Source: Candidatus Brocadiia bacterium
GTDB lineage: Bacteria > Planctomycetota > Brocadiia > SM23-32
Reading direction: 5' to 3'
Length of the DNA stretch: 20,026 bases
Assembly: GCA_046538485.1 (NCBI GenBank)
Contig: JBKHIT010000076.1
Location: forward strand, 1-20,026
In this document: piece by piece, positions 16,621-20,026 of the stretch
Position numbering within the stretch: position 1 is the first letter of the stretch
Layout of the letters: every line of letters starts with the position of its first letter
Notes under the pieces: generated by a model
Seen by the model: only the letters and a program-made list of their open reading frames with translations
Told to the model about the DNA's origin: nothing
The model's database searches: none
Translations under genes and position numbers: made by a program

Positions 16621-17481
16621 TTGAAAGACGTTAAACGGCGGTCTCATCCTGGGTTCACGTTGATTGAACTGCTGGTTGTCATCGCTATTATTGCTATCCT
16701 GGCGGCGATGCTTATGCCGGCGCTGGAAAGAGCACGGGCATCGGCGAGGAAGATCCGCTGCATTAATAATCTGAAGCAGATCGGTCTCGCAGAAATCATG
16801 TACACAAACGACTGGAACGGGAAGCTACCGTTGGCCCGGTACATCAACCGCAACGGGGATCATGTGAAAATGGTGTACGGCCCGAAAATAAAGGATACCA
16901 GCGGGAATTTTATCGAGGTAAAGGGACAGGTCCCCCGTGCCGGACAACAACCAGTGCTGATGGAAGGCGGGTACCTCGAGGTTAACGTCCCCCTTTTTTG
17001 TGCGGACAATCAATCTCGGGTCGAGCAGGCAGCTAAACCGTTGTGGCCCAGTCGGGAAGTTGTCCCCGGCTACGCCGCGCATGAGGATACGTTAAAGTAC
17101 TACCAGTGTTCGTTGCTTATCTCGATGGGAGCAACCCCGGGAACGGGACAAAGCGAAGAAGTTTTCAGGGCTCCATTCGCGCATATCGGGTCCTATAACA
17201 ACATTGAAAATACCTGTCCTCATGCCGCATCTCTCGATTGGTATCCTCCGAATGCGATACTTCAGGGTGAGCGCTGGCATGACAGATACAAAACCAGCCT
17301 GCCTATGTATAGTCATCTGCCGTTTAACGAGTATGCTGCAAATGGTGTTGTCTTTCGCCACCCCGGTCCGACAGCCAATTTTCTCCTGATGGACGCATCC
17401 GTTCGCTCGGGCGATGTGTCCTGGTGGCGCTCTCATCCATGGGGTGTCAGAGGACACGAGGGAGGCTTTCGTCCCCGATGA
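16621..17481 (+). CDS. Prepilin-type N-terminal cleavage/methylation domain protein (DUF1559-like) with a variant H-X9-DG C-terminal motif
   Basis: [47 protein letters not shown] and C-terminal [26 protein letters not shown] before the TTG start. Confidence 0.92.
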
Positions 17482-19541: not shown

Positions 19542-19735
19542 AAAACAGCGCATAAATCTGACAACTTAAAATCAGTGCTCAGCAACGAGGCGAATGATAC
19601 ATTGAGAAATGATCGACTCTAAAGGCTTTTTCACAAACAGGATACCTTCATCTTCCGGCACGGTAACAGCCGCCGGACATGGCGAACAATTCTTGTTGTT
19701 GTAAATTGTTATGCCTAAACGGCATGCGCTGTTTT
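19542..19735. repeat. 12-bp perfect inverted repeat bracketing 194 bp of non-coding DNA
   Basis: AAAACAGCGCAT (19542-19553) and ATGCGCTGTTTT (19724-19735). Confidence 0.55.
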
Positions 19736-19738
19736 ATA

Positions 19739-19765
19739 TAGCCTGCATCCGTAAGATGCAGGCTA
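19739..19765. repeat. Perfect hairpin (11-bp stem, 5-nt loop)
   Basis: TAGCCTGCATC-CGTAA-GATGCAGGCTA, with no adjacent U-tract on either strand. Confidence 0.7.
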
Positions 19766-19935
19766 GGAATTTGAGAAGCGCAACTCCCTTGCTCAGGAGA
19801 AGTTCTTTAATAAACTTGTCGTACAGGGTAAACTATTAGCACGGACGGATTGGTTTGCAGCTGATATTGAATGTGTTTTGTGGTACGGCCTGCGAGCGCA
19901 ACTGGTGGTGAAGAAACTGCCGGGGGAGGGTGATT

Positions 19936-19984
19936 GTGAAGAAAATAAAAAAGAATGCCGAAGCCGGATTCACTCTGATCGAAC
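19936..19984 (+). CDS. 5' exon/fragment of a second prepilin-type (DUF1559-like) gene, interrupted after GFTLIE
   Basis: GGAGG (19925-19929), 6 nt, then GTG start. Translates MKKIKKNAEAGFTLIE: a basic leader plus the prepilin cleavage motif. It then continues RVPS-stop (TAA 19996-19998) instead of LLVVI. Too short for the ORF track. Confidence 0.8.
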
Positions 19985-20026
19985 GTGTGCCCAGTTAAGG
20001 CTGGGTAAACTTGTTGGGTGTAAGTC
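19985..20026 (+). mobile_element. Probable 5' end of a group II intron (runs off the window)
   Basis: Begins GTGTG (group II 5' consensus GUGYG) exactly where prepilin homology stops. Followed by a CCCAG/CTGGG stem and GGGTGTAAGTC, resembling the GGGTGNRAGTCCC element near the 5' end of bacterial introns such as class IIC. Only 42 nt visible. Confidence 0.65.

Follow-up and report, generated by a model that had tools for sequence, protein, structure and literature searches.

The DNA analysed here (the window: 20,026 nucleotides (nt), the entire contig C42 of the genome bin G000 of a Candidatus Brocadiia bacterium, GenBank assembly GCA_046538485.1, contig JBKHIT010000076.1) ends inside a prepilin-type gene whose signal motif, FTLIEL, is interrupted by a group II intron; the element is cut off at 42 nt by the end of the assembly. 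The bin comprises 5.19 Mb in 143 contigs (88% complete, 4% contamination). The following features were located:

19922..19930, forward strand: Shine-Dalgarno-like sequence GGGGGAGGG of the interrupted gene, read directly; GTG lies 5 nt downstream
19936..19984, forward strand: 5' exon with GTG start, leader KKIKKNAEAG, FTLIE and the first base (C) of the Leu codon, from the sequence
19985..20026, forward strand: start of a group II intron of subfamily A, first 42 nt with a GUGUG 5' end, from the sequence and sister copies
16621..17481, forward strand: intact neighbouring paralogue, N_methyl and DUF1559 (Pfam N_methyl 2.5e-9, SBP_bac_10 3.1e-8)

The GTG start codon of the interrupted gene (19936-19938) opens an exon of 16 residues; after GTG the frame reads K K I K K N A E A G F T L I E, a single C is left at 19984, and the intron (GTGTGCCCAG...) runs from 19985 to the last base of the window, 20026. 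The final 7 nt of the exon, ATCGAAC, constitute intron-binding site 1 (IBS1) and form 7/7 Watson-Crick pairs with the loop GUUCGAU of sister copies. The neighbouring paralogue holds an empty site, ATTGAAC followed by TG (16663-16670), predicted to pair 7/7 with the same loop, one G-U pair included. The window's own exon is too short for domain scoring, and DUF1559 was instead sought in the neighbour and in seven downstream-exon proteins of sister insertions (the five 3'-junction open reading frames (ORFs), the C40 end and C44 exon 2): two passed, three were below threshold and two gave no match. N_methyl was above cut-off in the neighbouring gene and in five downstream-exon ORFs read from an internal ATG. 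The sequence-only reading of this stretch had called the interrupted gene DUF1559-type; this stands for the neighbour and for two of the seven downstream-exon proteins, and not for the 16-residue exon itself.

The window is interpreted, with high confidence, as ending in a mobile group II intron of a lineage that homes to one nucleotide of the prepilin motif and bears a spare copy of that motif in its domain VI. Such an element would be a self-splicing ribozyme, encoding in its complete copies a reverse transcriptase (RT)/maturase without endonuclease domain; the homing point would lie between GAR (Glu) plus the first Leu-codon base and the remainder of FTLIE-L-LVV, the class-III signal motif of DUF1559-like genes. 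The spliced joint of the window gene is predicted as ...ATCGAAC joined to TNCTNGTN. Insertion site, intron anatomy, covariation of exon-binding site 1 (EBS1), and the helix and coding content of domain VI were demonstrated by comparison of copies; splicing and retrohoming presumably occur in the lineage. Domain V/VI and RT features were read in sister copies; the window ends before them.

Copies in the host genome: the 42-mer of the window occurs exactly six times in G000 (C42, C56, C49, C38, C54, C20:82316), and two diverged copies of the intron 5' end were found at C20:86865 and C44:128384. All eight 5' ends follow (G/A)FTLIE and a single further base (C or T), and the eight junctions have eight different leader peptides and upstream regions, each belonging to another prepilin-type gene. 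Five of the eight (C42, C56, C49, C38, C54) lie at contig ends, because a multi-copy repeat breaks short-read assembly. The 3' end of subfamily A was found at five further contig ends (starts of C99, C140 and C143; ends of C118 and C138), which share an identical 48-54 nt, folding as a compact domain VI in which one A is bulged (z = -7.4), and run each into a different T-N-CTN-GTN-GTN exon (L-LVVIAII type). The five contig-end 5' junctions are thus matched in number by five contig-end 3' junctions of subfamily A; therefore the downstream exon of the window gene very probably lies on C99, C118, C138, C140 or C143. The window copy is one of at least five near-identical subfamily-A insertions whose interiors were collapsed in assembly. 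In the G000 bin no subfamily-A interior was found beyond two fragments, C20:82316 onward and C120:50-565, which are 98% alike and both lack ~1.3 kb of the RT, keeping its last 109 codons. Among 13 readable 3' junctions, ten continue as L-LVV, two enter another intron copy and one, that of the decayed C20:82316 copy (C20a), is followed by unrelated sequence.

Target site across genomes: every readable 5' junction (15/15; 8 in G000, 7 elsewhere) falls at the same nucleotide of the motif. Those outside G000 come from two other genomes, one other contig of a metagenome-assembled genome and three metagenome contigs: L025, L103, L119, L121, L122, G076:C134 and G076:C260 (7/7); two further flanks, 4-6 nt long, are consistent with a motif junction. 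The closest RT relative among 185,579 species genomes (L025, 72% identity) stands behind M-F-T-L-I-E plus C, and in the other 76 loci of that search (≤46% identity) the motif followed by an intron start was found in 0/76. One copy, behind E-F-T-L-I-E plus T, is present in the related genome G024, which belongs to the family of G000. G076, of another family in the same phylum, has three, two behind G-F-T-L-V-E plus C and one with a 6 nt flank. In a 401-genome sample of the phylum, 29 further RT-relative loci showed the motif only at the G076 copy (0/28 others, ≤49% identity). The conserved domain I pattern was found in four metagenome contigs, of which the three with at least 16 exon bases all show FTLIE plus C and the fourth shows only GAAC of its exon; the pattern was absent from the viral contigs searched. 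In Logan contigs the runs of two other studies, one run being an RNA library, contain the same junction behind yet other leaders; neither a spliced joint nor an empty-site allele turned up in these contigs, a result uninformative in both directions. Six other domain V hits in G000 belong to other introns, and none (0/6) is followed by an LLVV exon. A phylum-wide search with the 20-mer that follows domain V (≤2 mismatches) gave 25 places against ~10 hits of a reversed-pattern control; most of the 25 are unrelated sequence, L148 (G076) being real and L130 possibly so. The insertion site is accordingly taken, on the sequences compared, to be a property of the lineage and not a peculiarity of G000, and the targeting of the motif after the Glu codon and the first Leu base, proposed from the window alone, was borne out.

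Two side observations concern these sites. The L025 genome bears the label Bacteroidales, possibly a product of binning. In L025, L103, L110, L113, L121, L122 and L124 the position preceding F of FTLIE is occupied by M, E, R or K (not G/A), in ordinary leaders as well as in leaders encoded by domain VI; such residues are unusual for prepilin-peptidase substrates.

Intron anatomy: the C44 copy is complete (2,067 nt, GUGUG...AC) and has an ORF of 424 amino acids (aa) with RVT_1 (1.6e-41) and GIIM (3.7e-11) and no endonuclease domain. Its 3' end, ...AATAGTAC, is followed by TG CTG GTG GTC; excision in silico joins GAA T to TG CTG and restores the prepilin frame exactly at the DNA level, as had been anticipated from the lone C of the window. 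The copy G076:C496 has an RT 60% identical (RVT_1 4.1e-47, GIIM 9.6e-10) and scores 36.6 bits against Rfam RF00029 and 44 bits against RF02003. Domain V/VI scores against RF00029 were 33.6 (C44), 36.6 (L158), 33.7 (L119) and 32.9 bits (L025); domain I of a C20 sister copy gave 39.2 bits against RF02003 (E 5e-6). Unconstrained folds produced domain V and a domain VI with one bulged A (z -5.7 for C44, -5.9 and -7.4); the A is bulged in 11/11 readable copies and lies 8 nt from the 3' end, and domain V of the lineage has an AGC triad and a 2-nt bulge. The GTGTG 5' boundary is present in the window (19985) and in every copy. A 7-copy alignment is continuous from nt 1, and the base of domain I is free of any large subterminal insertion (300-700 nt), the RF02003 match starting ~27-30 nt in; a pairing of the 5' GUGUG with columns 232-236, proposed by RNAalifold, was not taken as real. 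The identification of the window element as a group II intron is supported by the RT/maturase, domain V and the domain VI with bulged A of the C44 copy. Several details foreseen from the 42 nt were also recovered: CC after AAGTC in the four subfamily-A copies that extend further (C56, C38, C54, C20a), the 3' end A-Y followed by T-N-CTN-GTN-GTN in C44 and at the five contig ends, and domains V/VI downstream in sister copies, with Rfam scores below gathering. The RT ORF is present, its motif being F-A-D-D and not the expected Y-A-D-D.

EBS1: a hairpin ~280-325 nt into the intron has a closing stem that covaries (CG to UA in two columns) and a loop, GUUCGAU, that is conserved in 7/7 aligned copies and complementary to the exon end AUCGAAC, a match that the sequence-only reading had proposed as a check. 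The synonymous positions of the exon (Ile third, Glu third and Leu first base) face G, U and G of the loop; therefore transitions there are tolerated as G-U pairs, and one intron would read most codon variants of AUY-GAR-Y through wobble. At the occupied sites of G000 pairing is 7/7 in 8/8 cases, with 4-7 Watson-Crick pairs each. The genome contains 134 intact motifs, 124 of them with one identical 10-residue reading; 88/134 are unoccupied sites that pair 7/7, and the commonest non-pairing variant has the Ile codon ATA (41 sites, ATAGAAC alone accounting for 30). In G076 the exon end GUCGAGC faces the loop GUUCGAC (C260) and (A)UAGAGC faces GUUCUAU (C496); these two independent compensatory switches of EBS1 are, at sequence level, the decisive evidence for recognition. 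A candidate EBS2, CAGAGU, was rejected: it pairs with ACUCUG in only 2/8 exons, lies partly in a predicted stem and shows no covariation in G076.

Domain VI: in all 11 readable copies its 3' strand forms a helix with the strand just 3' of domain V (5 base pairs (bp), the bulged A, 8-11 bp), with 13-16/16 pairs in ten of them and 8/16 in the decayed C20 copy. Over the first nine copies, 128/144 positions are paired in the true register, and shifting the register leaves 42-75; the two strands of one copy form 15.1/16 pairs on average, strands combined across copies 12.7, and in the upper helix only 1/90 mixed pairs attains the own-pair mean. The last 18 nt of the intron, in frame with the downstream exon, encode GF(T/S/L)LI(E/V) in four copies and (R/K/E)FTLIE in the rest (n = 11). 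The last 20 intron nt match the intron's own 5' exon end at 10, 14 and 16/20 positions; the figure is 2/20 for each of the distant relatives L159 and L160.

Two forms of domain VI were distinguished. The compact form (57 nt; C44, G076:C496 and the subfamily of the window) carries in subfamily A a loop with a GGTGA-type Shine-Dalgarno-like run and an in-frame ATG; the internal ORF reads M-R-L-W-R-R-G-F-T-L-I-E joined to LLVV..., and the five subfamily-A ORFs taken from this ATG score 34 bits against Pfam N_methyl (cut-off 21.2). The expanded form (175-215 nt; eight copies) has in 8/8 a GGAGG-type Shine-Dalgarno, an in-frame ATG and a longer leader; the four expanded copies with a normal 3' exon give ORFs of 323, 304, 400 and >196 aa. 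An unconstrained fold of the L025 expanded domain VI recovers the long-range helix (z = -6.3). A promoter scan found three sites in L110 (0.3 expected) and none in L025, so that promoters in expanded domain VI are no more than suggested. Expanded domains end in ATCGAAC, which matches EBS1, and in L121 and L122 the 5' end of a further intron comes next, head to tail; the terminal bases of compact domains, ATAGAAC or ATAGTAC, mismatch GUUCGAU. Both facts fit the EBS1 pairing rule. Copies reduced to domains V + VI (L110, L113, L126, L104, L124) stand before an intact gene or at a contig end, and may be 5'-truncated products of retrohoming, because reverse transcription starts at the intron 3' end.

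From this architecture the intron appears to bring a replacement N-terminus: an internal start in domain VI would let the downstream exon be translated without splicing. Expression that depends on splicing and recombination among paralogues, both put forward in the sequence-only reading, are conceivable consequences of the insertion. It is tentatively proposed, at rather less than an even chance, that the lineage is self-complementing, its domain VI doubling as a spare 5' end of the host gene with Shine-Dalgarno, ATG, leader and FTLIE codons and, in expanded forms, a promoter.

Related structures were noted in G000. Four double-leader genes (C19, oriented + 4069; C73, oriented + 36579, - 27780 and - 39048) have the layout FTLIE-L, a 21-aa in-frame insert, FTLIELLVV. 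The 63-nt insert starts at the nucleotide used by the intron (E + 1 nt), opens like intron bases 4-8, contains GAGGA, ATG and a small hairpin resembling the upper helix of domain VI, and closes in the manner of a domain VI 3' strand. It may have been left behind as a scar when an intron was lost, or be an insertion with extreme truncation at its 5' side. In L104 the motif is doubled in a similar way. Four orphan leaders (plus-strand junctions C44:138767, C7:12632, C112:39553, C20:83239) stop exactly at FTLIE/FSLIE plus one base and are followed by sequence without intron similarity, the one at C44:138767 going on as GTGTGT..., which resembles a short stub of the intron; all four may derive from deletions or rearrangements associated with introns.

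A number of observations weigh against the reading of a mobile, motif-homing intron with a coding domain VI. Every Rfam match of the lineage is below gathering (RF00029 33-37 against 40 bits; RF02003 32-44 against 49 bits), and the identification stands because features combine, not on any single score. Many lineage copies are truncated, and domain V of C20a is degenerate and disrupted; the window holds 42 nt only and the interior of subfamily A is missing from the assembly, so that the window copy may be non-autonomous or dead. The spliced exon joint was not seen in the public contigs covering the region. Only 8 of ~96 pairable sites are occupied, therefore other determinants or selection must act as well. 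No partners for EBS2, EBS3 or delta could be assigned in the examined copies, and the lack of EBS2/EBS3 counts here. As to domain VI, the full-length copies with intact RT, C44 and G076:C496, have no ATG in its loop, therefore internal translation is not universal; the spare motif of C44 is degenerate (GFLLIV) despite 16/16 pairing; and in L025, unlike L110, no site passed the promoter scan. The coding content of domain VI may be a relic in some copies.

These last points favour an explanation that is possible though doubtful, namely that the motif of domain VI is a historical by-product without expression role, such as exon sequence captured through recombination during the re-forming of a 3' splice site, the expanded forms being deletion fusions with the upstream region of a neighbouring paralogue. 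The decayed motif of C44 in a perfect helix suggests selection on the helix and not on the coding content, C44 and G076:C496 have no loop start codon, the promoter signal of L025 is weak, and prepilin genes are clustered, so fusions are plausible. Against this reading stand the domain VI interiors of L110, L113 and L121, which are ~85% identical over ~200 nt and yet precede unrelated sequences beyond the 3' splice site (a different gene in each of two copies, a further intron in L121); the aligner yields ~70-75% identity for unrelated low-coverage stretches, and only 85% values over ~200 nt were used. Against it stand also the Shine-Dalgarno, ATG and open frame retained in 8/8 expanded copies and in subfamily A, and the copy-specific covariation of the 5' strand with the leader codons.

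It was further considered that the window copy, and subfamily A with it, is a non-autonomous derivative lacking an RT, either trans-mobilised or immobile, so that the gene stays split unless a maturase splices it in trans; this is unlikely, though not negligibly so. The bin contains no subfamily-A RT, the two interior fragments (C20:82316 onward, C120:50-565) keep only its last 109 codons, and an intact related RT is available in C44, 86-87% identical over the remnant. On the other hand, five identical 5' and five identical 3' ends indicate recent copying, and bins often lose collapsed 2-kb repeats of high coverage, for which reason nothing can be concluded from the missing RT. Decay is plain in C20a (domain V disrupted, domain VI 8/16), whereas the five contig ends have an intact compact domain VI.

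Intron class: the resemblance to class IIC introns, suggested in the sequence-only reading, did not hold up, and it is very improbable that a IIC intron recognising a hairpin of terminator or attC type is present and its link with the motif incidental. The RT lacks an endonuclease domain, no EBS2 was found, and the closest solved RTs are IIC maturases (7uim 4e-61, 6ar1 9e-58, against IIB 6me0 9e-49), a modest lead over IIB. In the last 45 nt of eight 5' exons no common hairpin was detected (z from -2.0 to +1.1, folds differing). IIC-like relatives from Firmicutes match RF02001, which we take to be the IIC type, at 134-150 bits, whereas the lineage and its 48-49% RT relatives match RF02003. The absent target hairpin, the covarying 7-nt EBS1 and the RF02003-type domain I speak against a IIC assignment, and 15/15 junctions at one codon position argue against an incidental link. 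An assembly artefact, or a chance GTGTG behind a truncated gene, has a practically negligible probability, for although the window stops inside the element and the bin is fragmented, the same junction is found in independent assemblies (other genomes, metagenome contigs, public runs) and two G000 contigs cross it.

The motif-homing lineage was then compared with known systems. Known bacterial targets are described as homing sites, terminators and attC sites, class IIC introns using intrinsic terminators and attC hairpins (PMC4424553). With class IIC the lineage shares an RT without endonuclease domain, the closest solved maturases and the absence of an identified EBS2; it differs in having no target hairpin, a 7-nt rather than a short EBS1, and RF02003 in place of RF02001/RF01998. 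With endonuclease-less retrohoming introns, as far as the cited sources describe them (PMC4424553, PMC12584367), it has in common GUGUG, an EBS loop, RVT_1 + GIIM, domains V/VI, a 3' A-C and truncated copies; here the site is a short coding motif in >130 paralogues and not a unique site or mobile element, domain VI is coding and no EBS2 was found. The closest precedent encountered is a specialised IIB1 lineage that occupies start or stop codons, for example of groEL (PMC12584367), likewise monophyletic and inserted at one exact position in protein-coding genes. The host frame is preserved in both: the IIB1 lineage is described as regenerating the stop codon, and here a copy of the N-terminal motif is supplied. 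The IIB1 lineage sits at the very ends of single-copy genes and has a 300-700 nt insertion in domain I, whereas the present one splits the signal motif of a multicopy family, with its insertion, if any, in domain VI. B.c.I4 of Bacillus cereus (PMC1865049) is alike in its non-canonical extra 3'-end sequence; there 56 nt follow domain VI, here the loop of domain VI houses 120-160 extra nt and leaves a canonical branch geometry.

Some integrative elements carry a replacement end of their target gene, e.g. the 3' part of a tRNA gene. By analogy only, such elements also restore a displaced gene part; there a site-specific recombinase and a 3' end are involved, here a 5' end. Among the full-text papers searched, which mostly lie outside subscription journals, none was found that connects group II introns to genes of the prepilin, pilin, pseudopilin, DUF1559 or H-X9-DG kind, or that describes a promoter or leader within domain VI of an intron.

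Remaining observations on the window and on other introns: a palindrome, GCCTGCATCC...GATGCAGGC (window 19720-19768), lies upstream of the interrupted gene; in the public run X1 it is multi-copy (summed depth ~17 against 5 nearby), and in another contig it adjoins the sequence that opens contig C120. It could be a small repeat or terminator-like element. L159 (G332:C176) and L160 (G338:C47), with RTs 48-49% identical and an RF02003 domain I above threshold, are inserted right after ...CATG, which recalls the published start-codon-associated lineage. Another intron family of G000 (C65:5580-5669, C65:8344-8433, C79:9446-9526, C113:36673-36753) has ~70 nt conserved beyond the stretch that Rfam matches as domain V/VI; these introns may therefore carry a 3' extension and truly end downstream of that match. 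A sub-threshold match to the Acido-Lenti-1 RNA motif (L010 1715-1779, minus strand, equal to G000 C44 ~125214-125278; 30.2 bits against a gathering score of 37) was recorded on the downstream side of the C44 gene.

The usual view of bacterial group II introns is that they avoid coding genes or, inside one, depend on efficient splicing. The lineage described here targets the most conserved codons of a hugely expanded family and has a copy of the displaced motif in its 3'-splice-site helix; two features were not found described in the literature searched, namely a wobble-tolerant EBS1 that directs homing to the coding motif of a gene family with many members, and a domain VI that duplicates the displaced exon end in frame and in most copies includes a start codon. 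If domain VI does act as a spare 5' end, an interrupted pilin-like gene would be expressible without splicing, even from an intron truncated to domains V + VI, and invasion of a coding motif would cost little; every insertion would regenerate a homing site, in keeping with the head-to-tail arrangement seen in L121 and L122; the shuffling of leaders and promoters would extend over >100 paralogues, and the double-leader genes and the orphan leaders ending at E + 1 nt would be scars of the process. This constitutes a testable model for how a retroelement lowers the cost to its host. For annotation, such genes would be miscalled as truncated leaders or N-terminally odd proteins, and assemblies break there. 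In bacteria of the Planctomycetes-Verrucomicrobia-Chlamydiae (PVC) group, the intron is a possible driver of leader and promoter exchange and of rearrangement in DUF1559/prepilin-like families.

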